Assembly: GCA_946630435.1 (NCBI GenBank)
Contig: CAMOYS010000001.1
Location: 7,433 to 71,432 of the forward strand
Origin: an uncultured Bacillales bacterium
GTDB lineage: Bacteria > Bacillota_I > Bacilli_A > RFN20 > CAG-826
DNA: 64,000 nt
Direction: 5' to 3'
Both the position numbers and the translations under genes were made by a program. Under the pieces are notes generated by a model that was not told the origin of the DNA, searched no databases, and saw only the letters and a program-made list of their open reading frames with translations. Below are positions 4,244 to 60,598 of the stretch, in pieces (the stretch's first letter is position 1; the number at the start of each line of letters is the position of its first letter).

Positions 4244-4600
4244 ATGGCAGATTACATCCAAGTCCAAAACTATTCAAAATCTGGAGACCTTTACATTTCT
4301 CGTAAAATCTTTGAAAAGATAGCTACTGACGCGATTAAAAATGTGCCAGGGGTTTTACTTAAACCAAGAGGTAAGGCTCCAAAAAATAGAGTGTCCGCGC
4401 ACTTATCTCGTCCAATCCGTATTTCTTTTAGAAAAAATGGTCGAGTGGATGTTGATATCGATATTTCTTTAATCAAAGGTGCCAAAGCGGAACAAGTTTG
4501 CCTTCTTATTCAAGAAGAAGTATCAAACTCCTTACTCGCTTACACTGAAAGTGTACCATTCAATATTAATGTTAAAGTCGTGGAATTAGAAGATAAATAA
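4244..4600 (+). CDS. Asp23/Gls24 family alkaline-shock-like protein
   Basis: 118 aa with Asp23 family architecture. It sits just upstream of nusB, as yqhY does in Bacillus. Confidence 0.75.
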   Translation: MADYIQVQNYSKSGDLYISRKIFEKIATDAIKNVPGVLLKPRGKAPKNRVSAHLSRPIRISFRKNGRVDVDIDISLIKGAKAEQVCLLIQEEVSNSLLAYTESVPFNINVKVVELEDK

Positions 4601-5205
4601 TGAAACCAAGAAGGGAAATTAGCTATATCGACGCTCATAATAAGGCGGTCAAACATTATCAAAAAGCCTCGCTCTTTCTTCTTTATGCTGGAGTGCTAGG
4701 CCTTTTCGCCGCTATTATTGGGGTGGTGCAGATGGCTACGACTCAAGTTGAAGTCTTACCGGGTGAATTTAATTGGCCGAGCAGTGGATTTGCTCTTAGC
4801 TTATCGCTTCAAATCTACTTAAATAGCCTCTTATTAGCCCATCTAGACCAAGTTTTAGCCTCTTTCCTTATAATTATCCTCTCACTTGTTTTCGGCTCCT
4901 TATTTGGCTTTTTAGGCTATTTCGCTACAAGAGGGAGAAGGATATATCTAATTATCGGTCTAGCTTTATATTTCCTCGACTTCATATTCATGTTCTTTTT
5001 CTATCATTTAAACTTAGGAGGCGTTGGATTTGTTTGGACTAATTACGCTTTCTCGCTCGCCTTACATATAATTGTAATCGGCTTTGCTATTGCGGGTTTG
5101 GTATTTTATTACCAAGTATTTGATATTGAAAAGAAATTCAAAGGGGATAAAAGAGTAAACTTCAGAGAAGAAGAGAAAAGGGAGACGATCGCCAATGGAA
5201 AATAA
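4600..5205 (+). CDS. hypothetical polytopic membrane protein (part of the asp23 operon)
   Basis: 201 aa with 4-5 predicted transmembrane helices. Its start overlaps the asp23 stop (ATGA). Confidence 0.6.
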   Translation: MKPRREISYIDAHNKAVKHYQKASLFLLYAGVLGLFAAIIGVVQMATTQVEVLPGEFNWPSSGFALSLSLQIYLNSLLLAHLDQVLASFLIIILSLVFGSLFGFLGYFATRGRRIYLIIGLALYFLDFIFMFFFYHLNLGGVGFVWTNYAFSLALHIIVIGFAIAGLVFYYQVFDIEKKFKGDKRVNFREEEKRETIANGK

Positions 5206-7052: not shown

Positions 7053-8915
7053 ATGTCTAGTAGAAAAGTTAACAAAGTTAATATCCCAAGCATCCAGGAA
7101 ATTAAAAGCCCGGAATTTTTGAAAGATCTTAACTATAAAGAACTCGATTTATTAAGCAAAGAAATTAGGGAAGAAATCCTAAGATGCACTGCGAAAAATG
7201 GTGGACACCTTTCTTCAAACCTCGGCGCAGTTGAATCTACAATTGCTTTACATAGAGTGTTTGACTTTAAAAAAGATAAGCTCATCTTAGATGTTGGTCA
7301 TCAATGTTACACCCATAAGATTCTTACTGGTAGAAGTTTAGAGAATCTCCGTAAGAAAGAGGGCACAAGCGGATTCCAAAAAGTCACTGAAAGTGAATAT
7401 GACCCATTCGATGCTGGACATAGTTCAACCTCAATTAGCGTTGCAGATGGCTTTGCCATTGCTCGTGATTTAGCAAAAGAAAACTATGAAGTAGTGGCCT
7501 TTATTGGTGATGGTTCCATTGCTTCTGGCCTAGCTTTTGAAGGTTTAAACAATGTTTCTCACTCTAATCACAAGGTCATTATTGTCTTAAATGACAATGA
7601 TATGTCTATTTCTCGCCCAGTAGGAGGCTTAGGTAAATCCTTTGCGAAGATTTCTCTTGGCTCAGGTTATAACAAAGTTAAACGCGGTTTATCTAAACTT
7701 CTTAGTAAAAACAAAGTTACAAGAGCAATCCTTAATTTCTTTAGAAAGATTAAAAACTGGATCAAATTTAAACTTGTCCCTCCAACTTTCTTTGATTCAT
7801 TAGGCTATACCTTTATTGGTCCAATTGATGGTCACAACATTAAAGCTATGGAGAAAGCCTTTAAGAAAGCTAAAAATGTTGATAAGAGTGTCATCATTGA
7901 TATTGTCACTACCAAAGGTAAAGGCTATAAATTTGCGGAAAATGACACAAGTGGAAGTTGGCATGGTGTCACCCCATTCAATCTTGAAACTGGTGAGCCA
8001 TTAAGCAAATGCGATACAACTTCTTGGTCCAATGCTTTAGCAAATATCACTTTAAAGAATATGGAGAAGAACGATAAACTCATTCTTATTTCTCCTGCTA
8101 CCTTAAAAGGTAGTGACCTTGAAGAAATCTTTAATAGATACCCAGATAGAGCGTTAGATGTAGGCATTGCTGAAGAGCATGCGATGACTCTTGCGGGTGG
8201 TTTATCTAAGAATGGCTATCATCCAATAGTCGATATCTATTCCACCTTCATGCAGCGCGCTTACGATGAAATTGCACACGATATTGCTCGTATGAATGTG
8301 GGTGCTACAATTATTGTTGATCGTTCTGGTGTCCCGGGAAATGATGGTGAAACTCATCAAGGCACTTTCGACGCGGGTATATTTAGCGCGACACCTAATT
8401 GTGTTATAACAATGCCTTCATCAGTGGAAGAAGCTGATCAATTATTCACTTTATCACTTAGTTATAACGGGCCATTCTTTATAAGAATTCCTCGTGGCTG
8501 TGTTAAACCATATTACGGAAATAGTGGGGAAGTTAGCTTTGCTAAATGGTATAAGAAAATTGAAGGTTCTTCAAAGAAAGTGGCAGTTGTTTCAACTGGT
8601 TCACTCATTAACGAACTCGCTAAAGAGATTGATGAATCTGGTAAAGACGTTACATTATTTAATGCCTTATTTATCGCACCAATCGATTTAGAGGCTGCTA
8701 AAGAACTCCTTTCTTATGAAAGAGTGGTTATTTACGATCCATATTCCACCCAATATGGCTTAGCCACTAACTTAACTATGGAACTTGTTAAATTAGGTTA
8801 TAAAGGAAAGATTGAAACAAGAACTCTTCCAAATGCTTTTATCAAACAAGCATCTGTTGATGAACAACTCGACGAATTAGGCTTAAAACCTAGTGATATT
8901 GTAAAAATTCTATAA
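7053..8915 (+). CDS. dxs: 1-deoxy-D-xylulose-5-phosphate synthase
   Basis: 620 aa with GGHLSSNLGAVE and the GDG thiamine-diphosphate motif; transketolase-like fold. Confidence 0.9.
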   Translation: MSSRKVNKVNIPSIQEIKSPEFLKDLNYKELDLLSKEIREEILRCTAKNGGHLSSNLGAVESTIALHRVFDFKKDKLILDVGHQCYTHKILTGRSLENLRKKEGTSGFQKVTESEYDPFDAGHSSTSISVADGFAIARDLAKENYEVVAFIGDGSIASGLAFEGLNNVSHSNHKVIIVLNDNDMSISRPVGGLGKSFAKISLGSGYNKVKRGLSKLLSKNKVTRAILNFFRKIKNWIKFKLVPPTFFDSLGYTFIGPIDGHNIKAMEKAFKKAKNVDKSVIIDIVTTKGKGYKFAENDTSGSWHGVTPFNLETGEPLSKCDTTSWSNALANITLKNMEKNDKLILISPATLKGSDLEEIFNRYPDRALDVGIAEEHAMTLAGGLSKNGYHPIVDIYSTFMQRAYDEIAHDIARMNVGATIIVDRSGVPGNDGETHQGTFDAGIFSATPNCVITMPSSVEEADQLFTLSLSYNGPFFIRIPRGCVKPYYGNSGEVSFAKWYKKIEGSSKKVAVVSTGSLINELAKEIDESGKDVTLFNALFIAPIDLEAAKELLSYERVVIYDPYSTQYGLATNLTMELVKLGYKGKIETRTLPNAFIKQASVDEQLDELGLKPSDIVKIL

Positions 8916-8926
8916 GAAATCGCCTG

Positions 8927-8947
8927 TTTGGGACAATTTTTCCCAAA
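8927..8947. repeat. palindromic motif copy 1 (TTTGGGACAATTTTTCCCAAA)
   Basis: Perfect 7-bp inverted half-sites TTTGGGA and TCCCAAA. It lies between the dxs stop and its terminator, upstream of dinB. Confidence 0.7.
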
Positions 8948-8957
8948 TACATGACTT

Positions 8958-8989
8958 GTGAGCCGTTAACGGTTCACTTTTTATTTTAT
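8958..8989 (+). terminator. rho-independent terminator after dxs
   Basis: GTGAGCCGTTAACGGTTCAC hairpin followed by TTTTTATTTTATT. Confidence 0.75.
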
Positions 8990-9042: not shown

Positions 9043-10260
9043 ATGAGTAAAGCCAAGATAATTCTTCATATCGATTTAAATGCCTTCTTCGTTAAATGCG
9101 AAGAAATTAAAAATCCTGCTCTTATCGGAAAGCCAACCATCATTGGTCATGAAGGAAGAGGAGGAATTGTTTCAACCTGCTCATATGAAGCTAGAAAATA
9201 TGGTGTTCACTCTGGAATGCCGACTTTCCAAGCTAAGAAACTATGTCCTAACTTAATTGTTATTCCTGGTCATTATGATTTATACGAAGAGATGTCAGAC
9301 AAGTTTTTTAATTTTGTAAGACGATATTTCTCTTTATATGAGAAAGCCTCAATCGATGAATGCTTTATTGATGCTACTAAAGAACTAAGCAAAGTAGGGG
9401 ATGTTGTCTCTTATCTAAGAGAATTCCAAGAAACCCTCACAAAAGAGACTGGTTTAACCGTTTCTATCGGTGTCTCTCCAACTCGATTTTTATCTAAGAT
9501 GGCTAGTGATATGGAAAAGCCAAATGGCTTAGTCATCCTAAGAAGAAGAGATTTTAAAGAGAAAATCTATCCTCTTCCAATTGAATCATTCTTTGGAATA
9601 GGCCGTAAAACTTCTCCAGAACTTCGTAAGATGGGGATAAACACCATCGGAGACCTTGCTAACTTTATTAATAATAAAGAAGATGAATCTAGCCGCTTCT
9701 TTGGCAAATTCTATTATGTTCTAAAAGAATGGGTTAATGGCTACGGAAACGATGAAATCGATGTTAAACCTTGGGATCCTAAATCAATTGGAAACTCGAG
9801 AACACTTAGAAAAGACACTGCTTCTTTTGAAGAAATCGTTCCTATGCTTAAAAAACTCGCTAAAGAAGTGAGTGACCGCGCTATCGAAGCGGATAAAATC
9901 GGTAACTCCGTCCAATTAACCCTTAAGGACGCAGAATATGTCTCTGGTTTTAAATCTATAACTAGAAGTAAGCACCTTGATAAATACACTAACGACTACA
10001 ACACTATTTATAATACCGCCTACACTTTGCTTGAAAATAACCTAGGCGAAAACCCAATTAGACTCGTAGGAGTGTCTTTAAATAACCTCATCGATAAAGG
10101 GGAAGAACTTGTCCAATTATCAATTTTTGATAACTTCGAACAAATAGAAGAAGAAAACTCCACCAAACTTTTAGTGCACGAATTAAACCGTAAAATGAAA
10201 AAGGATGTCTTTAAGACTCTACGCGAAAAGAAAAGAGATGATAAGTATGGAAATAAATGA
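9043..10260 (+). CDS. dinB: DNA polymerase IV (Y-family)
   Basis: 405 aa; the N-terminal HIDLNAFF...SIDECFID region is the UmuC/DinB signature. Confidence 0.9.
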   Translation: MSKAKIILHIDLNAFFVKCEEIKNPALIGKPTIIGHEGRGGIVSTCSYEARKYGVHSGMPTFQAKKLCPNLIVIPGHYDLYEEMSDKFFNFVRRYFSLYEKASIDECFIDATKELSKVGDVVSYLREFQETLTKETGLTVSIGVSPTRFLSKMASDMEKPNGLVILRRRDFKEKIYPLPIESFFGIGRKTSPELRKMGINTIGDLANFINNKEDESSRFFGKFYYVLKEWVNGYGNDEIDVKPWDPKSIGNSRTLRKDTASFEEIVPMLKKLAKEVSDRAIEADKIGNSVQLTLKDAEYVSGFKSITRSKHLDKYTNDYNTIYNTAYTLLENNLGENPIRLVGVSLNNLIDKGEELVQLSIFDNFEQIEEENSTKLLVHELNRKMKKDVFKTLREKKRDDKYGNK

Positions 10261-11125
10261 AGCAATCGCTCTTTTCATTAAGTATATGCGTGTCGAGAAA
10301 GGCGCTAGTAACGAAACTATCGCCTCTTATCAAAGCGATCTTGAACTATTCGCTAAAGCTTTAAAACTCAAAAACGTTGAAGATTTAAGCCCGTATTCCA
10401 TCCAAGATTATGTCCGTATTCAGTCGAGAAATCTTTTAGTGGTCTCTACAATCTTGAGAAGATTATCCGTTACTCGAAATTTCTATCGCTTCTTAGAAGC
10501 GGAAGGCTATGTTAACGATGAACTTAAACGCTTTGAAGTCCCACGTAGCCCATCTCATCTCCCTGTAGTTTTAACCGTAGAGGAAGTTGAAGAACTATTA
10601 AACGCGCCTGATATCAATACGAAAGATGGCGCTAGGGATAAAGCAATGCTAGAAGTCATGTATTCTAGTGGTCTTCGGGTTAGCGAACTCCTCTCTTTAA
10701 AATTTAAAGACATCAACTTCGAATCTGGAATCATAAGCGTTAGAGGTAAAGGGAACAAAGAAAGAAAAGTTCCAATTGGTGAATACGCTTTAGAATATTT
10801 AAACCTCTATGTCCAAACCTGGCGAAAGAAAAATGTTAATCGAACGAGTCCGTTCATATTCTTAAATAAATATGGAGAACCATTATCCCGTCAATTCTTC
10901 TTTAGAAGAGTAAGAGAATACGCTCTTAAAGCGGGCATAAGTAAAACAATTAGCCCACACACCTTAAGGCACTGTTTCGCTACTCACATGCTTGAAAATG
11001 GCGCCGATCTTCGCGCTGTCCAAGAAATGCTCGGTCATGAAAACATTGCCACAACCGAAATTTACACCAATATCTCGGTTAATCGCGTTATGAGTGCATA
11101 TAACTTGTTTAACAAGCGCAAATAG
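10247..11125 (+). CDS. xerD: tyrosine recombinase XerD/XerC family
   Basis: The catalytic C-terminus is RHCFATHMLENGADLRAVQEMLGHENIATTEIYT. The track ORF starts at 10205, but the conserved XerD N-terminus aligns with the Met at 10247 (MEINEAIALFIKYM). The xerD-deoB context matches B. subtilis ripX-drm. Confidence 0.8.
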   Translation: MEINEAIALFIKYMRVEKGASNETIASYQSDLELFAKALKLKNVEDLSPYSIQDYVRIQSRNLLVVSTILRRLSVTRNFYRFLEAEGYVNDELKRFEVPRSPSHLPVVLTVEEVEELLNAPDINTKDGARDKAMLEVMYSSGLRVSELLSLKFKDINFESGIISVRGKGNKERKVPIGEYALEYLNLYVQTWRKKNVNRTSPFIFLNKYGEPLSRQFFFRRVREYALKAGISKTISPHTLRHCFATHMLENGADLRAVQEMLGHENIATTEIYTNISVNRVMSAYNLFNKRK

Positions 11126-12351: not shown

Positions 12352-13312
12352 GAGAATTCTTATCTCTCTTCTTTCAATCGCTTTCCTCGCCTCATGTGGA
12401 GGTGGTAATTCAAACCAAACTGAAGAAAGCGACATCACCTTTATTTCCCCAACAGGCGCTCCAGCCTTAGCCTTCTATGACCAAGGAAATAACAAGAACT
12501 ATGAAACTAATAGCACACCTTCTTTAGTTTTAGCAGAGCTACAAGCTAACTATTATGATGTAGTTGTCGCTCCTGTTTTCGGTGGACTTAAATCAATTAA
12601 AGCCAATAGCGCTGACTTTGCTTTAGCAGAAGTTGTTACAGGTGGTAACTTCTTCCTTGTTGGAGTTAATAAGGAAGCTAATGAAGTCCCAACTAGTTCA
12701 TCTTATATCGTCGCTTTTGCCGAACAAGATGTAACTGGTATGGTTTTTAAAAAGCTCGCTCAAGAAAAATGGAATATCGGAATGGAAAACGTTCACTTTG
12801 TTAGTGGCGCAGCTGATACTCTCCCAATCTTAAAAACTGGTAAACACGCGAGTAATCAAGTTGACTTTGTTTTAACTGCTGAACCTGTCTTTACTAACGC
12901 TAAACAAAGTAAAGATGAAGGCGTCACTTTAGTGGAAACCTATAACATTCAAAACGAATGGAAAACCTTAACTAAACAAGAAAGCCTTGTTCAAGCCGGT
13001 GTCTTTGTTCGTAAATCTTCATTAAACTCTAAACCAAATAAGATGAAACAATTCTTCGTTGACTTAAGAGCAAGAATCAAAACTGCCTTAACAAATCAAG
13101 ACGCAGTTAAAACAGCTTTACATGAATATAACGAAGACGTTAAAGAACAAGCTAAAAGATTTGGCTTCAATGAAAATCTTGCCTTTAATTTATTAAAAAA
13201 CGGTAATCGCTTCGGACTTGTCTCCCCAGAAACTAAGTTAGATGTCAATGCTTTCTTAGTCTCCTTAGGACAAACCGCTTATAGTAACGACTACTTTGTC
13301 ACAATCGAATAA
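12344..13312 (+). CDS. ABC transporter substrate-binding lipoprotein (NitT/TauT-like)
   Basis: 322 aa with a lipobox (LASCGGG). It overlaps the downstream permease gene. Confidence 0.6.
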   Translation: MTKRILISLLSIAFLASCGGGNSNQTEESDITFISPTGAPALAFYDQGNNKNYETNSTPSLVLAELQANYYDVVVAPVFGGLKSIKANSADFALAEVVTGGNFFLVGVNKEANEVPTSSSYIVAFAEQDVTGMVFKKLAQEKWNIGMENVHFVSGAADTLPILKTGKHASNQVDFVLTAEPVFTNAKQSKDEGVTLVETYNIQNEWKTLTKQESLVQAGVFVRKSSLNSKPNKMKQFFVDLRARIKTALTNQDAVKTALHEYNEDVKEQAKRFGFNENLAFNLLKNGNRFGLVSPETKLDVNAFLVSLGQTAYSNDYFVTIE

Positions 13313-14079
13313 TGAAACTGAAAGACTTCCTTAAAAACCATCGAATGACTATTTATACCACTCTCGGGGTTTTGGGAGTCTTTTTAGTTTGGTATCTCAT
13401 CTCACTAATTCTTAATACAACTTTATTCCCATCTCCAATCGTTGTTATTCCTGAGTTCGCTCGTTTGTTCACGCTAGCTGACACATACGCTCAAATTGGA
13501 GGAACGCTTTTAAGGCTTGTAATTTCTTTAGCCATAAGTTTACTCGTTGGAACCGCTTTCGGGGTTCTAGGCGGCGTTTTTGAGCGTTTTAGGGCGTTTT
13601 TTAAACCTTTCGTCACTGTCTTCAAAACTATTCCAACCGCCGCAGTGGTCTTTATCCTCATTGTTTTGATTAAACCACTCTTCACTCCAGTCGTCGTAAC
13701 CTTTCTCATCACCTTCCCAATTATTTACGAATCAGTCGTCACTGGTTTTACAAGCGTTGATGAGAATGTTGTGGATGCGATGAAGGTTGATGGAGCGAAT
13801 AAGTTCAAATCGATTTTTAGAGTCTATCTCCCGTTATCCAAAAACTACATCCTTCTCGCCTTAATTCAAATCATTGGTTTAGGAATGAAGGTCTCAATCA
13901 TGGCTGAGATTTTAGCGGGCTCAGATTCAGTCAGCGGACTTGGTCGAGAAATCTATTATGGATCTTTGACTGGAGACGTAAAAATGATCCTTGCTTACTC
14001 ACTAATTGCCATCTTAATTATAGGCTTAAGTGATGTTGGATTATACTTCGCTAAAAAGAAGTTAAAAGTTAGCAAATAA
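13312..14079 (+). CDS. ABC transporter permease (NitT/TauT family)
   Basis: 255 aa with 6 transmembrane helices and an EAA-like loop. No ATPase gene is adjacent. Confidence 0.7.
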   Translation: MKLKDFLKNHRMTIYTTLGVLGVFLVWYLISLILNTTLFPSPIVVIPEFARLFTLADTYAQIGGTLLRLVISLAISLLVGTAFGVLGGVFERFRAFFKPFVTVFKTIPTAAVVFILIVLIKPLFTPVVVTFLITFPIIYESVVTGFTSVDENVVDAMKVDGANKFKSIFRVYLPLSKNYILLALIQIIGLGMKVSIMAEILAGSDSVSGLGREIYYGSLTGDVKMILAYSLIAILIIGLSDVGLYFAKKKLKVSK

Positions 14080-14106
14080 ATATAAATATTTAAATTCAAT
14101 TAAATT

Positions 14107-14132
14107 GCGCGAAAAATTCGCGCATTTTTATT
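14107..14132 (+). terminator. rho-independent terminator after the ABC permease
   Basis: GCGCGAAAAATTCGCGC hairpin followed by ATTTTTATT. Confidence 0.75.
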
Positions 14133-14162
14133 AGTCAAAATTTAAGCTGCAGAAGTCCGCTC

Positions 14163-14201
14163 TTTGGGAATAATTTTCCCAAACGTTTGAGTTCCTATAA
14201 T
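14163..14201. repeat. palindromic motif copy 2 (TTTGGGAATAATTTTCCCAAA, then N7-TTCCTATAAT)
   Basis: Inverted half-sites, followed by the conserved downstream TTCCTAT element. Confidence 0.7.
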
Positions 14202-14209
14202 TTATCTAA

Positions 14210-14570
14210 ATATTTCTTTTTGTGCGTGTAAAATTATTAAAATCTAGATATGCATACATAAATTAAAAATACGTATCGCGTGGGCAATAAAATTTAGTTA
14301 AATTCATAGGCACGAAATAATAAAAAATTAAATTTAGAAATAGAAATATAAGGATGAATACGCTTGCGAAAAAAATAATAATTTGGCGCGCATTAAATTA
14401 ATAAATCAAGTAGGGGTGAGCGTGTCAAAAAATAAAAAATTACGCACACGCTATAAGTATCATAAACGAGTGCACGCTCATAAATAATCTATATCCAAGT
14501 GCACGAGTAAAGTATAAGAGCATAACCCATGTGCATATAAATAAAATCTACCCACGTGATGCGGATAGAT
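14210..14570. repeat. degenerate roughly 27-bp periodic, iteron-like array in a convergent intergenic region
   Basis: About 12 units. Each is a GC-rich 8-14-mer containing a CGTG, CACG or GTGCAC core (for example CGAGTGCACGCTC, CAAGTGCACGAG, CCCACGTGATGCGG) followed by an AT-rich spacer (ATAAATAAAATC-like). Confidence 0.55.
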
Positions 14571-14573
14571 TAA

Positions 14574-15098
14574 TTAAGAATATTTATCAAAGTCGTCTGG
14601 AGGGACCGGCTGGTTAAGGTCGACTTTTGGTCTTGTTTCTTTATAACCTTTAAAGTCCACAATGAAGGAAGAGACAGTAAATACGCACGCTGCGATAAGC
14701 ATGTAATAGTTAAGTGTGAGGGCAGCGCCTAAGATTAAAACTGTACCCGCAAGAATAGTAAATGGAGCAGGGATTTTAATGAAGGCAAAAAGGTAACGAG
14801 GGTCATATCCGTGAGAGATGAAGACGACGTAAAGAATGAAATAAGCTCCACCAAAAACGATGCAGAAAAATGTGTAAGTGAAGAACCATCCGTTATAGCT
14901 AAATCCATGTGAATAGAGTAGGGCAAGAACGGTTGCGGCAATCCCAGAAAGAATCTCTAAAATGAAGAAGAGAAAAGTAGGGAACTTGAATAGACTCACT
15001 AAGATCTTTCCTTTGCCAGACGCAATGAAGTGAATCACCTTAGGCATGAAGAGGAAAAATGTAAATAGAGCAACGTATATTGAAGTCGGCGAGATCAT
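14574..15098 (-). CDS. hypothetical integral membrane protein
   Basis: 174 aa with about 5 transmembrane helices and no recognisable motif. It is flanked by long non-coding regions. Confidence 0.5.
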   Translation of the reverse strand: MISPTSIYVALFTFFLFMPKVIHFIASGKGKILVSLFKFPTFLFFILEILSGIAATVLALLYSHGFSYNGWFFTYTFFCIVFGGAYFILYVVFISHGYDPRYLFAFIKIPAPFTILAGTVLILGAALTLNYYMLIAACVFTVSSFIVDFKGYKETRPKVDLNQPVPPDDFDKYS

Positions 15099-15371
15099 GA
15101 TTTTGATTATAGGTAAAGGCGTCTAATTGTAAAGAAAAATCGGTTGTAGGGAAGGGAAATTAGTAGAAAATTAGTAGTTTTTGAAATCCACTCAGAGTGT
15201 GGAAAACCCCATTTTGTGGGTTATTAACTATATTTTGACAAACTAAGAAATCTGCTACAAAACACGATTAAATCGTGCTTTTATATTCTCTGGTTAACAT
15301 AATAGAGATTATGCGAAGTAATATATTGATAGCGGATTAGCCTTCTTCTATTACTCTTCTCCACTTTAAGA

Positions 15372-15408
15372 TAAAAAAAGAAACACACGTACGTATATAC
15401 GCGTGTAT
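15372..15408 (-). terminator. terminator of the yqeG-rsfS operon
   Basis: Minus strand: ACACGCGTATATACGTACGTGTGT hairpin then TTCTTTTTTTAT. Confidence 0.65.
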
Positions 15409-15432: not shown

Positions 15433-15807
15433 TTAGGCTTTACGATTGTCTCTACTAAGGAACTCTTCGAGGTCAATTCTTTCTCTTTCTTCCTTAGTAA
15501 AGATATTAATTATGACATGATTCGCATCGATTAAGATCCAACCTGAGGCGACTTTTCCTTCAACATTTTTGATGTTTAATTTGTTCTTTTCTAAGGCCTC
15601 GACAACGGCTTCTTTTAAGGCATTAAGTTGTCTCACATTTCCCGCTGTGGCTAAGACATAATAATCAGCAAACGGAGTTCTTTCTTTAACGTCCATTGTC
15701 ACAATATCTTGAGCTTTATGTTCGTCTAAAACTTTCTCAACAACGGATAAGGTTTTGTCTTTTCTTGGCATAGTTAATTCTCCTATTTTAAATACATATT
15801 GAAGCAA
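15433..15807 (-). CDS. rsfS: ribosomal silencing factor RsfS (Iojap)
   Basis: 124 aa, DUF143/Iojap family. It is the last gene of the yqeG-rsfS operon. Confidence 0.85.
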   Translation of the reverse strand: MLQYVFKIGELTMPRKDKTLSVVEKVLDEHKAQDIVTMDVKERTPFADYYVLATAGNVRQLNALKEAVVEALEKNKLNIKNVEGKVASGWILIDANHVIINIFTKEERERIDLEEFLSRDNRKA

Positions 15808-16880
15808 GCATCAGTTAGCTTGTTGGTAATGTCTTTATTATGTTTTAAAAGATATTTCTTATTATCAGTTAAGGTATCAATGAAACCTTGATGATAGTCT
15901 TTTAAGGCTGAGGCAATTAGCCAACTAGAATCGAATCCTCTAGTCGGTTCAATCTTGTCTGATAGATAAACAATCTGGGCAATCTCATCCATATTCGCAT
16001 TCCCAGTACAATGGAATTTAATTGCATTTAAAATTGATTCATCTTTAATATCAAATTCAGTTCGGGCAATGTATTCTCCAATGAATTGATGGAAGCTAAA
16101 AGGTGGAAGAGTTAAATAACTTGGGTAATGTTTCTTCATGAATTCAATACCCTTAACTCCTATATAATCTTTACTCTTTCCAACATCATGAAGGATGCCA
16201 GCGATATAGGCTCTTTCTGGATTATCTATTTGATTCTTTTTGGCGATTAAATACGCTAAATGGGCCACCTCAATGGAGTGACGTAATCTCGCTTCATCAA
16301 TATGCATTGCAATCTTATTTACAAAGTAAAGACGATGTTTTTCAATGTAAGTTAAAACTTCATTAGGAACATCGAGTGATTTAAGTTCTCTAACATCTGT
16401 GGAACTAACTTCTCCAGAATTATAGAATTCCATCGAAGTCATCTTATAAGTCTCCACTACTTTTTTATCTACTTTGTAGCCAGGACGATCAATATAGATA
16501 ATACTAGTTAAAGAAGCTAATTCTTCCGCGTTTTTCCATTCTGAGAAACGATTTACTTGATCCACCCCTATTAAAAGGTAAAGTTTATCGTTTTTATATT
16601 TTTTCTTTAAATATCTAACAGTATCAATCGTATAGTTAATATCCGCTTTTGATTTGAGTTCAAAATCAGAAATAATTGTGCCGCTTGGGGCGTTTTTAAG
16701 TGCTAATTTAACCATTTTAAGACGGTGTTCACTACTAGTTAATGGTGCTTTCCATCTTGGCGATTTAGCGGGCACTAAAACAACATCCGCGTTTAATTTT
16801 AACGATGCATACATCATTAAGCGGAGATGTCCATTATGAATTGGGTCAAATGTCCCACCAAAAATGATTAAATTACCCAC
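15783..16880 (-). CDS. nadD: nicotinate-nucleotide adenylyltransferase fused to a YqeK-type HD phosphohydrolase
   Basis: The N-terminus carries GGTFDPIHNGH (NadD). The C-terminus carries an HD domain (HSIEVAHLAYLIA...ILHDVGK), which is a separate gene, yqeK, in Bacillus. Confidence 0.85.
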   Translation of the reverse strand: MGNLIIFGGTFDPIHNGHLRLMMYASLKLNADVVLVPAKSPRWKAPLTSSEHRLKMVKLALKNAPSGTIISDFELKSKADINYTIDTVRYLKKKYKNDKLYLLIGVDQVNRFSEWKNAEELASLTSIIYIDRPGYKVDKKVVETYKMTSMEFYNSGEVSSTDVRELKSLDVPNEVLTYIEKHRLYFVNKIAMHIDEARLRHSIEVAHLAYLIAKKNQIDNPERAYIAGILHDVGKSKDYIGVKGIEFMKKHYPSYLTLPPFSFHQFIGEYIARTEFDIKDESILNAIKFHCTGNANMDEIAQIVYLSDKIEPTRGFDSSWLIASALKDYHQGFIDTLTDNKKYLLKHNKDITNKLTDACFNMYLK

Positions 16881-18596: not shown

Positions 18597-21437
18597 CTAA
18601 TCAAAATCAGTATCATCGAAAATGGATACTTGTTTATAGCCTTTTTCTTCCTCCTCTTTCATCTTTTCTAATTTCTCGTTCAAGTTCTTTTCTTCTAAAG
18701 CTTTTTCTTCTTCGAGACGTCTTCTCTCTTCGATTTCTTTCACTTTAGCATCAAATAAACTTTCTTCGTTAACATCTTCGGTGTTTGGGACATTTTGTCC
18801 TAAAGAGTCGACTTCTGCATGATTATTTTCAGAATTTTCTTCCGCTTCTTTTTCTTCAACAGCTGTTTCTTCGAATAATGAAGGAGTGTTTGTGTCACTA
18901 TCTTCTTCATTTTCTTCCTCAAATTCATCTTTAATCATATTGGAAACGATGTCGTTAGAGATGTAATCATCACCATTAACAAAGACAAATTCAATTGAGT
19001 CACCTTTCGAAAGTTTCACTGATCCTGCTTTTGCATATTTATCCATTGGAGTTAAATGATAATCATTTACTTCGATAGATTTTGTCTCTTTAAGCGCGGT
19101 ATTGAAGAATAAAGTTGTAGGTTCTTCTTTATTTAAAACTTTACCTGCATAAATTAAGGTATGTTTTTCGCTCTTGAAGCACTTAAATACTTCAGTTAAG
19201 CGACCAAGTCTTCTAGTAAGCGCTGTGTTACTTGCTTCATAAATTCTAAGGCAACCTTTATCAGTTAAGATTATAATCTTACCTTTAGTTTCATTAACAT
19301 CATAAGCAAGTCCAGTAGCGATAAACGCTCCATTAAGTTTTCCTATTGCTTTTACCCCACCAGATTTAAGTCCTTGTTGAGGAATTTCATTCTCATTAAA
19401 TAAGGAAGAGAAGCCATTTGTGAGGAATAAAAGGATATTAGAGTTACCTCTTGAGAACATAACTTCTTTCACTTCATCATCCCCTAGTAATTTCATGCAC
19501 ATTACTGACTTAGAATGTCTCACGATTGGGAATAATGAGAGAGGTAGACGCTTAATTTGTCCAAATTTAGAGACAAGAATAAAGAATAAGTCATCTCTAA
19601 ATGTTTCAACGACAAAGGCGCGTACGATTTTTTCATTATTATTTAAGGATGCAAGGTAATTGATATGTTTACCTTCATCTTTCCATTTATTTTCATTGAT
19701 TTCATGAACTGGAATATAAAGATAATTACCTTGGTTAGTAAAGCAGATTAAGAAATCGGTAGTCATAGCCTTACCACTATAGATTAAGGCATCGCCTTCT
19801 TTTAATCCTGGAAGTGGATTATCCCCACTCGAACGGTAAGATTTAACGCTACTACGTTTAATATAACCATCATTAGTGACCGCCACCATCGTTTCTTCTT
19901 TAACGATTAAGTCACGTTTATCAAAGTTGAAGGTATTTTCTTCTTTATCTACGATAACACTTCTTCTTTCTCTACCGTATTTTTGAGAAATCTTACGTAA
20001 ATCAGAGCAAAGTAAACGGTCGAGTTTCTTTCTATCCGATAAGATTCCTTCAAGGTCAGCAATGGTTTGAATTAATGTATTCTTCTCATTAATCAAAGTA
20101 GTCATATCGGTATTAGTGAGTTTATAAAGTTGAAGCATAACGATAGCTTCCGCTTGTGGTTCACTAAAACCAAATTTCTCGGATATATTTTTCTTCGCGT
20201 CTTGTTTATCTTTAGAAGCTCTAATTGTGTTTACAACTTCATCAAGGATGGAAACAGCTTTAATTAAACCATCCACTATTTCAAGACGACCTTTTGATTT
20301 CTTCAAATCAAATTCGCTTCTTCTAGTGATAACTTCAACTTGGTGAGCAATATAAGCGTCAATAAAATCAAGCAAGGTCATGGTTTTTGGTGAACCATTA
20401 ACAATTGCCACCATATTTGGAGAGAACGAACCTCTAAGGCCAGTCTTAGTGTTCAAGTAGTTATAAATAGCTTCCATATTCGCATCTTTTTTAAGATCGA
20501 TAACGATACGGAGACCTTTTTGGTCTGATTCATCTCTAACTTCTAAAATACCTGGAAGAACTTTATCATGACGAAGCATATCGAGTTCATGGACTAAATC
20601 AATCTTGATTGTGCCATAAGGAATCTCAGTGATAACGATGCGTTTTTCTTTATCGTTATCGATAACTTCGGTCTTAGAAGATATTTCAATTCTTCCTCTT
20701 CCTTTGGTGTATGAATCCACTAAAGAAGGCGTTTTATAAATAATTCCACCAGTTGGGAAATCTGGTCCAGGAATGAATTGCATTAGGTCTAAAGATGAGA
20801 CATTTACGTGATTTATCCTATATATAGTCGCCTCAATTACTTCTTTTAGGTTATGTGGAGGGATATCTGTGGCTAAGGCAACAGCAATACCTTCACTACC
20901 ATTTACAAGTAAATTAGGGAAACGAGCTGGAAGGACAACTGGTTCAAAATCATCATCATCAAAAGTAAGCGCCATATCGACGGTATCTTTTTCGATGTCA
21001 CGAATCATTTCTTCTGCGATTAAAGATAATCTCGCTTCAGTATAACGATAAGCAGCTGGTGGATCGCCATCGATTGAACCTTTATTTCCTTGGAAATCAA
21101 TAAGTGGAGCGTTCACTTTCCAGTCTTGGCTCATTCTAACTAAAGCTTCATAGATAGAAGTATCACCATGTGGATGGTATTTACCCATAACTCCACCGAC
21201 GGTGTGCGCTGATTTTCTAGTTGGACGGGTGAAAATATTCCCGTTTTTATACATATAGTAAATGATTCTTCTTTGGACTGGCTTTAAACCATCCCTAGCA
21301 TCTGGAATCGCTCTATCTTGGATAACGTATTTCGCGTAGGTAGCGTAACGAGAACCCATGATTTCTTCCATAGTTTCACTATGGATGTTTTCTTGGATCT
21401 CTTCTTCAATAATTAGGTTAGTGTTCTTCTTAGCCAT
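18597..21437 (-). CDS. parC: DNA topoisomerase IV subunit A (ParC) with a long acidic C-terminal tail
   Basis: 946 aa with the GyrA/ParC N-terminal domain (active-site Tyr region, AAYRYTEARL). No GyrA box QRRGGKG was seen. The plsY-parE-parC context is conserved, and the last roughly 130 aa are Glu-rich and low complexity. Confidence 0.8.
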   Translation of the reverse strand: MAKKNTNLIIEEEIQENIHSETMEEIMGSRYATYAKYVIQDRAIPDARDGLKPVQRRIIYYMYKNGNIFTRPTRKSAHTVGGVMGKYHPHGDTSIYEALVRMSQDWKVNAPLIDFQGNKGSIDGDPPAAYRYTEARLSLIAEEMIRDIEKDTVDMALTFDDDDFEPVVLPARFPNLLVNGSEGIAVALATDIPPHNLKEVIEATIYRINHVNVSSLDLMQFIPGPDFPTGGIIYKTPSLVDSYTKGRGRIEISSKTEVIDNDKEKRIVITEIPYGTIKIDLVHELDMLRHDKVLPGILEVRDESDQKGLRIVIDLKKDANMEAIYNYLNTKTGLRGSFSPNMVAIVNGSPKTMTLLDFIDAYIAHQVEVITRRSEFDLKKSKGRLEIVDGLIKAVSILDEVVNTIRASKDKQDAKKNISEKFGFSEPQAEAIVMLQLYKLTNTDMTTLINEKNTLIQTIADLEGILSDRKKLDRLLCSDLRKISQKYGRERRSVIVDKEENTFNFDKRDLIVKEETMVAVTNDGYIKRSSVKSYRSSGDNPLPGLKEGDALIYSGKAMTTDFLICFTNQGNYLYIPVHEINENKWKDEGKHINYLASLNNNEKIVRAFVVETFRDDLFFILVSKFGQIKRLPLSLFPIVRHSKSVMCMKLLGDDEVKEVMFSRGNSNILLFLTNGFSSLFNENEIPQQGLKSGGVKAIGKLNGAFIATGLAYDVNETKGKIIILTDKGCLRIYEASNTALTRRLGRLTEVFKCFKSEKHTLIYAGKVLNKEEPTTLFFNTALKETKSIEVNDYHLTPMDKYAKAGSVKLSKGDSIEFVFVNGDDYISNDIVSNMIKDEFEEENEEDSDTNTPSLFEETAVEEKEAEENSENNHAEVDSLGQNVPNTEDVNEESLFDAKVKEIEERRRLEEEKALEEKNLNEKLEKMKEEEEKGYKQVSIFDDTDFD

Positions 21438-27457: not shown

Positions 27458-28351
27458 TTTCTTTAAGAATTCTTCTCTCCAACCTTCTATAAACTTATTA
27501 TTCATTAGCATTGAAATTTCCTCTTTATATGGAGGATTTTTCTCTATATAAGGTGTTTCAAGAATCTTTGGAATATCAGTGAGCTTTGGATGATGAACAA
27601 CATAATTTAAGGCATCAAAACCAATATAGCCATAACCTAAATTTTCATGTCTATCTTTATGCGCGCCTACTGGGTTTTTAGAATCATTTATATGTAAAAC
27701 TAGTAAGCGATCAAGACCGATAATCTTATCAAAAGAAGCGAGGATTTCATCAAAATTTTCTATAGGAAGTCCACTATCTGAGACATGGCAGGTATCTAAA
27801 CAGACCCCTAGCCTATCTTTGTGCTTGGAGTTATTTATAATATAAGCGAGTTGTTCAAAGGTGGTTCCAAGTTCACTTCCCTTACCCGCCATAGTTTCTA
27901 AAGCAATCTTAACATCGGAGTTATCTTTATCTAAAACTTCATCAATTCCATCAATAATAGCGTTTAGCCCGACTTGTTCTCCGTTTCCAACGTGACTTCC
28001 TGGATGAAGCACTAAAAGTTTAGCGTGAAAAGCGTGCGTTCTTTGCACTTCACTAAGTAATGCTTTTTTAGCGATATCATAAACGGAAGGATTTCCGATA
28101 TTGGCTAAATTAATAATATAAGGCGCGTGTACGACAATCTTATCTTCATTAAAGCCGTGTTCAAGTAAAAGCTTTCGACCTTCTTCGATTTTGCATCTAT
28201 CTAATGGAGAACGAAAGGTGTTTTGTGGAGCGCCTGTATAAAACATAAAGGTCGTAGAACCATAGGAAATGGCCTCTTTGACACTTCCAAGATAAAAATC
28301 TGGTCCACTCATAGAGACATGAGAGCCTAAATATAATTTTTCGTTATTCAT
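27452..28351 (-). CDS. nfo: endonuclease IV
   Basis: 299-aa Xyl-isomerase-like TIM barrel with the AP endonuclease family 2 motifs (HAPYIINL, HLND). Confidence 0.85.
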   Translation of the reverse strand: MNNEKLYLGSHVSMSGPDFYLGSVKEAISYGSTTFMFYTGAPQNTFRSPLDRCKIEEGRKLLLEHGFNEDKIVVHAPYIINLANIGNPSVYDIAKKALLSEVQRTHAFHAKLLVLHPGSHVGNGEQVGLNAIIDGIDEVLDKDNSDVKIALETMAGKGSELGTTFEQLAYIINNSKHKDRLGVCLDTCHVSDSGLPIENFDEILASFDKIIGLDRLLVLHINDSKNPVGAHKDRHENLGYGYIGFDALNYVVHHPKLTDIPKILETPYIEKNPPYKEEISMLMNNKFIEGWREEFLKKL

Positions 28352-29711
28352 CTCCTCTAGCCTCCCTTTTATATCTTTCTACTCTTTGTTTACGGATTTC
28401 TTTTTTAATTAGTTCGCGACGGTGTTTACGCTTAATATCTTTAACTTCTTCCCTGATTTTCTTTTTATAACCAGGTTTAACTTTCTTATTTTTACCTTTA
28501 AGCATTGAAGTTGTTCTTTTGATTTTATTATCAAGTTCTTCATCCTTTTTCTTTTTGGTTGGATGAGTTTTTTCAATTCCTTTACCTTCAAGGAGTTTAT
28601 TATCTTTTAAGACTAAATATTTAAATGTTGTTCCATGAGAGATAAGTTCTAATGGCTTTTTCGTTGAATCACTATTATAGAAAACATAAGAATTACCTAG
28701 TTTATCAAATCTTCCGGTTCTACCCGCGCGGTGATAATAGAATTCGATATTGCTTGGAAGATCAACGCTTAAAACATCACTTACATCTTTAATATCTAGT
28801 CCCCTACTAGCCATATCGCTACAGACTAAAATATAGATTTGCTCATTAATGAGCATCTTCATGATGTTTTTTCTTTCTCTTGCGCTTAAATCCCCGGTTA
28901 ATAAACCAACTTTATATTTATTTTCTTTTAAATAAGCATATATTTCGTTCGCAGTTTCTTTTTTAGATGCAAACACCATCAAAAGGTATGGATTTTTAAT
29001 ATCGATAAATTGTCTAACTGCTTCTTTTTTATCGATGTATTTAATATCAATTAAGTAATGAGTGACATTATCGCTAGTTAAAATATCTTCATTAGTAATT
29101 TCAATATTTGTTCCCACATATTTAGATAAAACGCTTAGGCAGTTATTTTCTAAGGTAGCAGAGAACACTAAATATTGAACCTTATGGTCAATAACATCTA
29201 TTACTGGATCAATTAATTCGAAATAGCCTTCTTTAAGAAGCATATCCGCTTCATCAAAGACGACGGTTTTAACGCTTCTAAGTGATAAAATATCGTTTTT
29301 AACGATAACATCATGTAGTCTTCCTGGCGTAGCAATTAAAATTTGAGTGCCATCTTTAAGTCCCGAAATTGAATTAGCAAGTTCTTCCCCTGCTTTAATT
29401 AAGCGAACTTTTACTGGCTTTTCGTAATTTATTAATAATTCGTTAGCAAAGCTAAAGATTTGGCTAGCTAATTCTCTTGTAGGAGCGATTATTAAAGCCT
29501 GAACTTCTTTAAGACTTGGATCAATACTTTCTAGAATTGGGACTAAGTAACATAAGGTCTTTCCACTTCCAGTTGCAGATTGAACGAGTAAAGTCTCTCC
29601 TTTAAGAGCTTTAGGAATAACTCGAAGTTGAATTGGAGATGGGTTAAAATACTTCGCCTTATTAAGCGAATTAAGCATATCAGTAGATAAATTTAGACCT
29701 TTAAATGACAT
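28344..29711 (-). CDS. DEAD-box ATP-dependent RNA helicase (CshA/CshB-like)
   Basis: 455 aa with a Q motif, AxTGSGKT, DEAD, SAT and HRAGRTGR, plus a Lys/Arg-rich C-terminal tail. Confidence 0.85.
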   Translation of the reverse strand: MSFKGLNLSTDMLNSLNKAKYFNPSPIQLRVIPKALKGETLLVQSATGSGKTLCYLVPILESIDPSLKEVQALIIAPTRELASQIFSFANELLINYEKPVKVRLIKAGEELANSISGLKDGTQILIATPGRLHDVIVKNDILSLRSVKTVVFDEADMLLKEGYFELIDPVIDVIDHKVQYLVFSATLENNCLSVLSKYVGTNIEITNEDILTSDNVTHYLIDIKYIDKKEAVRQFIDIKNPYLLMVFASKKETANEIYAYLKENKYKVGLLTGDLSARERKNIMKMLINEQIYILVCSDMASRGLDIKDVSDVLSVDLPSNIEFYYHRAGRTGRFDKLGNSYVFYNSDSTKKPLELISHGTTFKYLVLKDNKLLEGKGIEKTHPTKKKKDEELDNKIKRTTSMLKGKNKKVKPGYKKKIREEVKDIKRKHRRELIKKEIRKQRVERYKREARGDE

Positions 29712-29765
29712 AACTTTGTTAATTATACACTAGAAATGAATAATGTGCTAATATGTAAGCATATT

Positions 29766-30635
29766 ATGGAAGTTAAAGTTATTAAGCCATTCGGTTATTG
29801 CGCTGGCGTTGAACACGCAATCTTAATGGCGATAAATATTAAACTTAAAAACCCAAATCGACATGTCGTTATTTTGGGGATGCTCGTTCATAATCATGAC
29901 ACGCTTAAAATGCTTAAAAAAGAAGGCGTAGATGTCATTTATGAAAAAGGAAAAACATATTTAGAATTAATAGATAAAGTTAAAGATGATGATATCGTTA
30001 TTTTAACTGCGCATGGTCACGCCCTTGAAGTAGAAACTATCTTAAAAGATAGACATATTGAATATGTTGATACCACTTGCCCATTTGTGAAAAAGAATCA
30101 TGAGCGTATTTTAAAAGCGTTAAACGAAGGCCATGAAGTTATCTATATTGGTAAAGAAAACCACCCAGAAGCTATCGCTGCGTTATCGCTTAATAAAGAT
30201 AAAGTACACTTATTAGATATAAATAAAAATAATAAGTTACATCTTAAAGATGAATCCCCATTCGTGGTGAATCAAACCACTCTTTCAGAGCTTGAAATTT
30301 CCCAAATAGTTGAGAACCTATATGAAATTTATCCAAAAGCGATAATTACTGATACGGTTTGTTATTCATCAAGTGAAAGACAAAAAGCCATCTTATCAAT
30401 AGATAAAGATATCGATATTATTTATGTTTTGGGTAGTACAATTTCCAATAACACTTTAACCTTAAAGAAGCTTGCGGAAGAGTCTCACCCTAATTCAAAA
30501 GTAATCATGATTGAAAATGCTTCCTTTATTAATAAAGAAGATTTAAAGGGAGTAAAGAAAGTCGCTATTACTTCTGGTGCATCCACTTCGAAAGAAACGG
30601 TTCTAGAAGTGAAAGAGTTCTTAGAAAATATTTAA
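29766..30635 (+). CDS. ispH: 4-hydroxy-3-methylbut-2-enyl diphosphate reductase (IspH/LytB)
   Basis: The track ORF starts at 29736, but the IspH consensus N-terminus (MxIxxAxPRGFCAGV) aligns with the Met at 29766 (MEVKVIKPFGYCAGV). Three conserved Cys residues are present. Confidence 0.85.
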   Translation: MEVKVIKPFGYCAGVEHAILMAINIKLKNPNRHVVILGMLVHNHDTLKMLKKEGVDVIYEKGKTYLELIDKVKDDDIVILTAHGHALEVETILKDRHIEYVDTTCPFVKKNHERILKALNEGHEVIYIGKENHPEAIAALSLNKDKVHLLDINKNNKLHLKDESPFVVNQTTLSELEISQIVENLYEIYPKAIITDTVCYSSSERQKAILSIDKDIDIIYVLGSTISNNTLTLKKLAEESHPNSKVIMIENASFINKEDLKGVKKVAITSGASTSKETVLEVKEFLENI

Positions 30636-43423: not shown

Positions 43424-43510
43424 AAATAAACTTCCTCCTCATTAGATAGAATAGTAAATTATACCAACTTTTCTTATTTTATTAAATAAGTTTCGCTCTC
43501 ATTTTGCATA

Positions 43511-43549
43511 TTTGAGACAAATTTTCCCAAAGAGCCGACTTCCTATATG
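43511..43549. repeat. motif copy 3 (TTTGAGACAAATTTTCCCAAAGAGCCGACTTCCTATATG)
   Basis: It lies in the divergent pdp/rsmF-like promoter region and is flanked by TTTTGCATA and ATTTGCATA direct repeats. Confidence 0.7.
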
Positions 43550-55408: not shown

Positions 55409-55699
55409 GACAATATTATAAATAAAATATAAAAAGATACGATAATTTTATTAAAGAAATCTTGCTTTGAGTAAAGAAAAGAACAGCATAGGCTGAATAA
55501 AATGAATATTGGAGACCTATCTACCTATACTGTTCGATAATAATTATTATTATTTCCCTACTTTTGTAAAGTAAATTTTGATGTCATAAGCTCGTTTTTT
55601 GATGTCAAATTTTAATCATTGACCGAGCAGAAAAAATATGTAAGGTTTTTCATTGACTATTTTGTCATTATATAAAAATTTTTCATAAATATTCCACTA

Positions 55700-60526: not shown

Positions 60527-60598
60527 AAAGATGAAAAATTTGTGCTTACTTAAGTAAAAAGAAAGAAATATGAGGTTAAGTCACTAAGAAGTCACCTC

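Follow-up and report, generated by a model that had tools for sequence, protein, structure and literature searches.

Organisation of the locus at the replication terminus

We analysed a 64-kb stretch of contig CAMOYS010000001.1 (hereafter the window), with a focus on a periodic array of short G+C-rich segments located in a long non-coding stretch between two convergent genes. This stretch extends over 494 bp from stop codon to stop codon (positions 14080-14573) and separates an ABC-transporter permease gene on the + strand (13312-14079, Pfam BPD_transp_1) from an open reading frame (ORF) on the − strand encoding a 174-amino-acid membrane protein without a family match (14574-15098). The left boundary of the array is formed by the intrinsic, bidirectional terminator of the permease gene (14106-14124, + strand), an 8-pair stem with a T tail that reads TGCGCGAA-AAA-TTCGCGCA and then TTTTTATT. 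The right boundary is the terminator, likewise intrinsic, that ends the membrane-protein gene on the − strand (14545-14571; AATCTATCCGC-ATCAC-GTGGGTAGATT, then TTATTTAT), which shows 100% identity in the closest relative, L001, and whose 5' arm is similar to the unit boundaries of the array (ATCTATATCCAAGTG and ATCTACCCACGTG, respectively; repeat family D2). The two terminators both aim inward. A palindromic element of about 46 bp, which is dispersed over the window, is also represented between them by one copy (AGAAGTCnnCTCTTTGGGAnnAATTTTCCCAAAGAGnnGACTTCT, 14147-14198); the element resembles a repetitive extragenic palindrome (REP) or a miniature inverted-repeat transposable element (MITE). 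In a first-pass annotation of the window, this copy had been called motif copy 2; it lies outside the periodic array proper, which occupies 14220-14550 on the + strand and comprises 11 co-oriented units of 22 nt. No ORF longer than 34 codons was found in the region, and a coding function is thus unsupported. A promoter scan revealed no sigma-70-like site in the interior of the array, and a terminator scan found hairpin-plus-T-tract sites at its two ends only and none internally. The promoter of the membrane-protein gene was located on the far side from the array (TTTACA-16-TATAAT, 15133-15106).

The first-pass annotation described the region 14134-14573 as a degenerate array of about a dozen units with a period of roughly 27 bp. 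About a dozen G+C-rich islands are indeed present, among them GTGCGTGT, ATGCATACAT, CGCGTGGGC, GCGCGC, GAGCGTGTC, ACGCACACGC, GTGCACGC, GTGCACGAG, TGTGCATATA and CACGTG. They are parted by A-rich spacers and have start-to-start distances of 23-34 bp; the spacing of the array units ranges from 22 to 37 bp. The last of the proposed units (14545-14571) did not hold up, as it is the − strand terminator of the membrane-protein gene. Fourier analysis of the G+C indicator yielded a peak power of 6.8 at a period of 27.5-28 bp, a value reached by none of 2000 mononucleotide shuffles (0.92 ± 0.27). When the analysis was slid in 234-bp segments along the whole window, the five strongest periodicities between 20 and 40 bp were all located at 14201-14361, and the best one away from this intergenic region reached a power of only 1.7. 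The 28-bp periodicity is genuine, and it is the strongest in the window. Tandem Repeats Finder, the type of program proposed for checking the array, reported nothing even at a minimum score of 30; therefore, the array is not a conventional tandem repeat. An exact-seed repeat search returned weak two-copy families only.

Alternating purine/pyrimidine (R/Y) runs of at least 6 nt cover 101 of 374 bases in the array region. This value is the maximum of the window, where the mean is 16.6 (standard deviation 12.2), and it is matched by 0.6% of dinucleotide-preserving shuffles. The CG and GC dinucleotides are enriched 2.2- to 2.5-fold, and almost half of the G/C bases are part of strictly alternating R/Y runs. 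Intergenic R/Y runs of at least 9 nt are confined, in the window, to the array and to one terminator near the dif site described below. The second-highest density of alternating R/Y sequence (up to 71 of 374 bases) was observed at about 29550-30070, a region of low G+C content that spans the divergent starts of two ORFs (28344-29711, − strand, and 29736-30635, + strand). The A-tracts of the array show no helical phasing, since the AA/TT power at 9.5-11.5 bp is ordinary and is equalled by 22% of windows; intrinsic curvature was rejected on the same ground.

To the right of the membrane-protein gene, at about 750 bp from the array, we identified a site of the canonical 28-bp dif type for chromosome dimer resolution (GGTTAACATAA-TAGAGA-TTATGCGAAGT, 15292-15319). 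The cumulative G-C skew has its maximum at 15340 and the cumulative A-T skew at 15272, both less than 50 bp from dif. Among the ORFs of at least 100 amino acids, all 13 to the left of the array are encoded on the + strand, and 40 of the 45 to its right are encoded on the − strand; the switch in gene orientation falls precisely at the array. Since the genes converge, the skews peak and dif is present, the locus is the replication terminus and not an origin. The first-pass annotation had suggested examining the cumulative skew for a replication-related switch; such a switch is present and marks the terminus. At this locus, the leading strand also carries an excess of A over T, the pattern reported for low-G+C Firmicutes (PMC3174206). 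For this uncultured rumen Erysipelotrichaceae genome, the positions of the terminus and of dif are hereby fixed to approximately 50 bp.

A gene encoding a tyrosine recombinase of the XerD/XerC type (10205-11125, + strand; TIGR02225 XerD, 325.6 bits; NF001399, 309 bits with a cut-off of 279) is located about 4 kb to the left of dif, and parC and parE are located 3-8 kb to its right. The listed XerD-like ORF (306 amino acids) overlaps the end of dinB by 56 nt (10205-10260). Since the product has 290-292 amino acids in the relatives, the true xer start is probably downstream of 10205. The position of a xer gene 4 kb from dif recalls single-recombinase Xer systems, with the difference that the two dif arms are unlike here.

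The unit motif and its distribution among relatives

To describe the repeating unit, 44 units from four array-bearing lineages were brought into a Gibbs alignment, which resulted in a motif of 22 columns. Each unit begins with a core of about 9-10 nt that alternates as RYRY-GC-RYRY around a central G-C step and continues with a tail of about 12-18 bp of A/T-only DNA, which is A-rich on the permease strand. Columns 1-10 of the motif read A-T-R-Y-G-C-R-Y-R-T, while columns 11-22 are A-rich. The purine fractions of columns 3-11 are 0.98, 0.30, 1.00, 0.02, 0.91, 0.07, 0.93, 0.09, and 0.77. Over these columns and all 44 units the R/Y alternation amounts to 90-100% per column, while the commonest base typically accounts for about 60%. 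In the window, the units start at 14220, 14246, 14276, 14304, 14358, 14384, 14416, 14440, 14472, 14495 and 14529, all on the + strand, with a single decayed gap at 14326-14357.

A matrix derived from the lineages L002, L003 and L011 alone placed units of the window at the top nine of 127,958 positions, all of them on the + strand. As the units of the window are ranked on top by a matrix from other lineages, the arrays of the four lineages are, judged by their motif, homologous in kind and orientation. Using the full matrix, between 5 and 13 matches of at least 12 bits were obtained per array-bearing locus, nearly all within the arrays, compared with none or one per array-less locus. The region 14220-14550 contains the only cluster of matches in the 64 kb. 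When the aligned 22-nt units are compared in pairs, their mean identity amounts to 0.44-0.51 inside an array and to 0.47 from one lineage to another, and a base-by-base alignment of arrays between lineages is impossible.

Several more specific interpretations of the unit were tried and rejected. The cores show no dyad symmetry beyond that expected from the column frequencies (for example, 13 Watson-Crick pairs across the core centre compared with 14.4 expected, and 17 compared with 19.4), which speaks against palindromic operators. The complementarity of adjacent islands was no higher than in R/Y-preserving permutations, either as DNA or as RNA of either strand (P = 0.36-0.84), and hairpins between neighbouring cores were dismissed for this reason. 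A Chi-like GCGTG motif occurs in both orientations in the array and is not common to the cores of the other lineages. The unit consensus (..GCGCATAAA..) superficially recalls a dif arm (TTCGCATAAT). Scored with the unit matrix, though, the real dif arms come no higher than 561st among the 127,958 positions, at 2.7 bits compared with 13.7-16.8 bits for the seven best units, and Xer half-sites or tandem dif copies were therefore rejected.

A scan of genome collections returned one relative, L001, a metagenome-assembled genome from the rumen (uncultured Erysipelotrichaceae RUG13318) whose membrane protein is 99% identical to that of the window. Further syntenic contigs were reached through homologues of both flanking proteins, and a scan of JGI metagenomes with an alignment of the membrane protein gave no match. 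The syntenic loci share the order dinB, xer, deoB, a 322-amino-acid ORF and the permease gene, followed by the convergent membrane-protein gene, dif, rsfS, nadD/yqeK, yqeH, yqeG and parC. The dif site occupies an equal position in every syntenic relative (RGTTMACATAAT-N4-ATTATRCGAAGT in 12 loci). One of its arms reads ATTATGCGAAGT in the array-bearing and ATTATACGAAGT in the array-less lineages.

The first-pass annotation had asked whether the array exists in related genomes. Equivalent arrays were found in four syntenic lineages, namely the window together with L001, L003 (= L010; 94% identity of the neighbouring proteins to those of the window, as a three-gene average), L002 (79%) and L011 (71%). 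In these, the permease and membrane-protein genes are separated by 420-510 bp, the array has a total length of about 310-450 bp, and R/Y runs cover 23-32% of the array compared with 4.5-7% of the remainder of each locus. The window, L001 and L003 share a period of 28 bp, whereas L002 and L011 show weaker peaks, at about 25 and 24 bp, respectively. The number of units is equal in the window and L001. Six sister lineages (L004/L005, L006/L007, L008/L009, L012, L013, and L014) lack the array; their flanking genes are only 3-41 bp apart and their permeases are 58-60% identical to that of the window. The simplest history suggested by this distribution is one insertion in the ancestor of the sub-clade to which the window belongs.

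Two of the contigs deserve a separate remark. An ENA contig with a 99%-identical permease (L015) extends only 134 bp past the permease stop codon and ends at the array edge. This suggests that assemblers break at the array, and the contig could not serve as a third close relative for polarising substitutions. In L011, only a 53-amino-acid product is called at 4271-4790, where other lineages read the membrane-protein gene; this gene may be fragmented or mis-assembled.

A second R/Y-alternating sequence was noticed on the opposite side of dif. The stem and loop of the rsfS terminator (15383-15408, − strand) form a perfect alternating R/Y run of 26 nt, which is the longest in the window and lies 64 nt from dif. 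The same terminator forms a perfect R/Y run of 26-28 nt in all array-bearing loci, 64-137 nt from dif and always on the side opposite the array, whereas it is an ordinary hairpin in the five array-less lineages with contigs that reach past dif. Its predicted fold, of about −18 kcal/mol, is that of a normal terminator. This tract is possibly related to the array; alternatively, shared ancestry together with the evolution of RNA stems by transitions may explain why the two occur together.

Other features of the locus fall outside the array. At 15158-15210, in front of the membrane-protein gene, lies a direct repeat (ATTAGTAG(N4-5)ATTAGTAGTTTT) that is followed by a DnaA-box-like sequence (TGTGGAAAA), which is perfect in L006 (TGTGGATAA). 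The upstream repeat element is conserved in all relatives, and similar AATTAGTAGTTTTTTAGT motifs were found in the window at about 3538, 7026, and 24264 (families D6 and D18). The element is probably a shared operator or promoter element. A single ORF of 365 amino acids (15783-16880) combines a cytidylyltransferase-like domain of the NadD type with an HD domain of the YqeK type; it is conserved in all relatives and seems to have arisen from the fusion of two genes that normally occur separately. The domain scans of the neighbourhood took in 14 proteins, including DinB, the XerD-like recombinase, DeoB, the ABC permease, the membrane protein, RsfS, NadD-YqeK, YqeH, YqeG, ParC, and ParE.

Evolution of the array and its possible explanations

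To follow the recent evolution of the array, the window was compared with L001, with expectations scaled by base class from 4-fold degenerate sites. These sites differ at 14.0% (122 transitions and 65 transversions), with 20.5% for G/C sites and 12.4% for A/T sites. At the 110 core positions, the number of transitions is not significantly different from expectation (14 compared with 12.8), while only one transversion was found where 5.5 were expected (P = 0.027). The 235 tail positions contain 15 changes compared with 32 expected (P = 0.0006), i.e. 6 transitions instead of 19.3 and 9 transversions instead of 12.7. The deficit in the tails hence falls on transitions, namely those that create G/C. 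These data suggest that the cores vary while R stays R and Y stays Y, and that the tails swap A and T but seldom gain G/C. Since the cores change by transitions (14:1) and the tails stay A/T, selection seems to act on base class and not on base identity.

Over longer distances, the identity to the window at 4-fold sites decreases to 64% in L003, 51% in L002 and 37% in L011, with saturation at 32%. Neutral decay was simulated under an HKY model with an AT-biased equilibrium and no insertions or deletions, starting from an ancestor composed of perfect 28-bp repeats with all-G/C R/Y cores. At 0.9 substitutions per site, the simulated R/Y coverage was 0.19 ± 0.05, compared with 0.28-0.38 in the four arrays, and the simulated odds of G/C clustering were 1.06 ± 0.13, compared with 1.37-1.65. 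The periodic power was 1.3 ± 0.6 in the simulation, while values of 6.3, 5.5, 1.8 and 2.1 were observed.

Given the apparent single gain, an architecture that outlasts near-saturation, the shared and oriented class-level motif, substitutions that respect base class and the position between two terminators, our tentative interpretation is that the array is a selected element that acts at the DNA level as an array of low-specificity sites at the terminus; we put the probability of this interpretation at roughly 0.4. The location of the array beside dif suggests a role in terminus biology. The array would then represent a non-coding element, probably not transcribed, that was gained once in one sub-clade of the Erysipelotrichaceae. 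It would have entered the chromosome at a distance of about 750 bp from dif, with the last + strand gene on one side and the first − strand gene on the other, and it would be made up of some 11-13 co-oriented copies of a very degenerate unit. Selection would maintain a physical property of the duplex of low specificity, in which flexible or Z-prone R/Y tracts alternate with stiff A/T tracts, and the array could serve as a multivalent platform for a protein that reads DNA shape at the terminus. Candidate readers include a type II topoisomerase and a nucleoid- or terminus-organising protein; the array might also act as a polar obstacle to replication forks or translocases. An array of protein-binding sites had been considered in the first-pass annotation; this is possible and close to the interpretation preferred here, with sites that are degenerate at the level of base class.

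Several observations weigh against a selected element. The deficit of transversions comes from one genome pair with 15 core substitutions (30 in total) and a P value of about 0.03, and 4-fold sites are an imperfect neutral standard, and A/T runs may mutate more slowly. The neutral simulation fits the data at 0.45 substitutions per site and lineage, and the distances near saturation are rough. Neighbouring units are sometimes near-duplicates (TACGCTCGGCA twice in L003, ACATGCGTAT twice in L002 and GTGCACG twice in the window), and gaps of about 20 nt occur in the alignment of the window with L003, which is unreliable. Together, the near-duplicate neighbours and the gaps indicate that a minisatellite-like turnover of units continues. 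Since the spacing varies between 22 and 37 bp, the period differs between lineages (28, 25, and 24 bp) and the A-tracts are unphased, no precise higher-order geometry is kept. Mixed R/Y tracts of 8-10 bp are poor formers of Z-DNA according to the energetics of the B-Z transition. Furthermore, six related lineages live without the array, and no lineage-specific partner gene was found, the same gene neighbourhood being shared by relatives with and without the array.

The main rival is a neutral minisatellite, in which a single tandem amplification, in a permissive spot between the convergent terminators, multiplied a unit of some 28 bp that perhaps stems from the adjacent terminator. The array would have been decaying ever since, while units were now and then duplicated or lost. 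The R/Y pattern and the periodicity would be ancestral leftovers, kept because most substitutions are transitions. We regard this explanation as possible but on the unlikely side, and as weakened by the motif and the substitution evidence. In its favour, the array differs from that of L001 by 8.7%, which is not far below the third codon positions of the neighbouring genes (8-20%), and the cores change at the neutral rate (13.6% compared with 14.0% at 4-fold sites). The near-duplicate neighbours and the gaps relative to L003 point to slippage or unequal exchange, the similarity of the unit boundaries to the membrane-gene terminator arm fits an origin from a terminator, and both the absence of the array from six lineages and the simulation at 0.45 substitutions per site agree with neutrality. 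However, the array is older than the split between the window and L011, at which 4-fold sites are nearly saturated, and at 0.6-0.9 substitutions per site even the extreme simulated ancestor predicts less R/Y coverage and G/C clustering than is found in all four arrays. The tails have changed less than half as much as expected for A/T sites and transversions are scarce in the cores, while G+C lost through AT-biased substitution could not be regained by the duplication and loss of units. Moreover, the total length has remained steady in the four lineages.

Three further explanations were weighed against the position of the array and the structure of its units. The units might be terminator-derived modules that serve as back-up terminators or insulators, halting convergent read-through and sparing RNA polymerases collisions with each other or with replication forks near dif. 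The array lies exactly between two convergent terminators, a T-rich run follows each core on the − strand, the unit boundaries resemble the membrane-gene terminator arm and the rsfS terminator stem likewise alternates between R and Y. Nevertheless, we consider such a function unlikely, because self-complementarity of the cores does not exceed that predicted from column frequencies, complementarity between adjacent cores does not rise above that of permuted cores, hairpin-plus-T-tract sites are restricted to the array ends and the relatives cope with 3-41 bp between the same genes. A structured non-coding RNA, as raised in the first-pass annotation, for instance a protein-sponge RNA transcribed from a promoter in the palindromic element (14147-14198), is quite unlikely. 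Short repeated motifs with A-rich linkers do recall sponge RNAs. The perfect TATAAT at 14194-14199 is aimed into the array as the annotation stated, changes by transitions only are also typical of RNA stems, and a predicted pair linking the cores 14420-14426 and 14445-14451 is preserved by a double change from G-C to A-U; consensus folding and covariation counts relied on two alignable sequences and have little power. On the other hand, the TATAAT is not conserved, reading TATGAT in L001 and TATCGA in L003, and the palindromic element, which lies beside the array in the window, L001 and L003, is missing from L002 and L011, which keep their arrays. Rfam gave no match at the gathering threshold, nor at E ≤ 5 inside 14220-14550, the folding z-scores were −1.6 and −2.0 for the two strands, no sigma-70-like promoter was detected within the array, inter-core complementarity was not in excess on either strand, and the terminators at both ends aim inward. 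An operator array of a conventional, sequence-specific transcription factor for the flanking genes would account for the many co-oriented copies of a common motif with a conserved central G-C step. Since the array faces the 3' ends of both genes, regulation of these genes by the putative sites is unlikely, and a conventional operator array is very improbable: the array lies outside the terminators of both neighbours, the promoter region of the membrane-protein gene is on the other side of that gene, the motif has little base-specific information and no dyad symmetry, and no second motif cluster exists in the 64 kb.

The first-pass annotation also pointed to iterons, and an origin of this kind, from an integrated plasmid or phage or as a chromosomal origin-like element, is close to refuted. 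Co-oriented direct repeats in AT-rich DNA with a spacing of 22-30 bp bear a superficial likeness to iteron origins, whereas the locus is a terminus with converging genes and a skew maximum, and the genes on either side are core genes with conserved synteny in all relatives. The units share about 49% identity, which is no higher than between lineages. The scan of neighbouring proteins showed no Rep or initiator gene, there is no apparent island bounded by an integrase, and blastn (word size 11, E ≤ 0.01) returned no match in 72,556 plasmid and 50,697 phage records.

Returning to the selected DNA-level element, it is conceivable, though we consider it doubtful, that the array, possibly together with the 26- to 28-nt R/Y tract across dif, constitutes an undescribed terminus element with information in DNA mechanics, through the alternation of kinkable or Z-prone R/Y cores with rigid A/T tracts, and not in base sequence. 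Such an element would serve the last steps of replication, as a zone where topoisomerase IV or gyrase preferentially loads or cleaves, as a torsional buffer or as a polar pause site for forks or translocases. To our knowledge, most bacteria have no fork trap, and we know of none in this Firmicute lineage either. Little is known about DNA elements besides dif that act at the end of replication, and the array would offer a deletable object for studying fork fusion, decatenation and dimer resolution in Firmicutes. If the interpretation is correct, the array would exemplify, in an unusual way, selection that acts on the shape of DNA instead of its sequence. If it is instead a decaying minisatellite, it would demonstrate that periodicity scans catch arrays that are missed by tandem-repeat finders and that the junction of the chromosome halves tolerates junk DNA.

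Comparison with known systems

The array matches no known repeat family. Neither Rfam nor the plasmid and phage records nor the literature searched offered a precedent, and the literature searches covered Z-DNA and degenerate repeats at bacterial termini. The known systems that resemble it do so in part. CRISPR arrays similarly consist of two kinds of short segment in regular alternation, but their period is about 60-72 bp compared with 28 bp here, and the 'spacers' of the array are low-complexity A/T sequence. As no conserved exact repeat is present and the scan of 14 neighbouring proteins detected no cas domain, CRISPR was rejected, in agreement with the first-pass annotation.

Minisatellites, or variable number tandem repeats, share with the array the head-to-tail periodic units, the signs of duplication of neighbours and the alignment gaps of about 20 nt between relatives. 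Their units are highly similar and can be detected with Tandem Repeats Finder, in contrast to those of the array, which moreover outlasts the near-saturation of neutral sites.

REP sequences and bacterial interspersed mosaic elements (BIMEs) of enterobacteria are likewise clusters of short, G+C-rich extragenic sequences with short linkers, found after the 3' ends of genes or between convergent genes. These extragenic palindromes bind gyrase and IHF, and they have been proposed as topoisomerase-binding sites. These elements are imperfect palindromes of alternating orientation, dispersed in hundreds of copies, whereas the cores of the array are non-palindromic and co-oriented and form a single cluster in 64 kb. 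The real REP-like element of this genome appears to be the separate 46-bp palindrome. This imperfect palindrome (AGAAGTCnnCTCTTTGrGACAAATTTTCCCAAAGAGnnGACTTCT) has a REP- or MITE-like appearance and is dispersed over seven sites in the window (8902-8973, 14147-14198, 18760-18830 in parC, 43497-43546, 44677-44722 in an ORF, 55680-55735 and 60574-60634), most of them intergenic and two within ORFs.

The fork traps Tus-Ter and RTP-Ter resemble the array in their location in the terminus region near dif and in their polar orientation. Ter sites are sequence-specific (23-30 bp) and conserved, and they occur singly over a large region in two opposed groups, while the 11-13 degenerate units of the array all lie on the same side of dif, within 330 bp. 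No protein of the Tus or RTP terminator families was reported among the 14 neighbouring proteins scanned in this 64 kb of the genome.

The iterons of plasmids and phages such as R6K, RK2, P1 and pSC101 are also co-oriented repeats, spaced by about 20-30 bp in AT-rich DNA, and like the array they are plausible as a multivalent platform for a protein. Iterons are near-identical copies of about 17-22 bp, located at an origin with the cognate Rep protein encoded adjacently, whereas the units of the array share features at the level of base class only.

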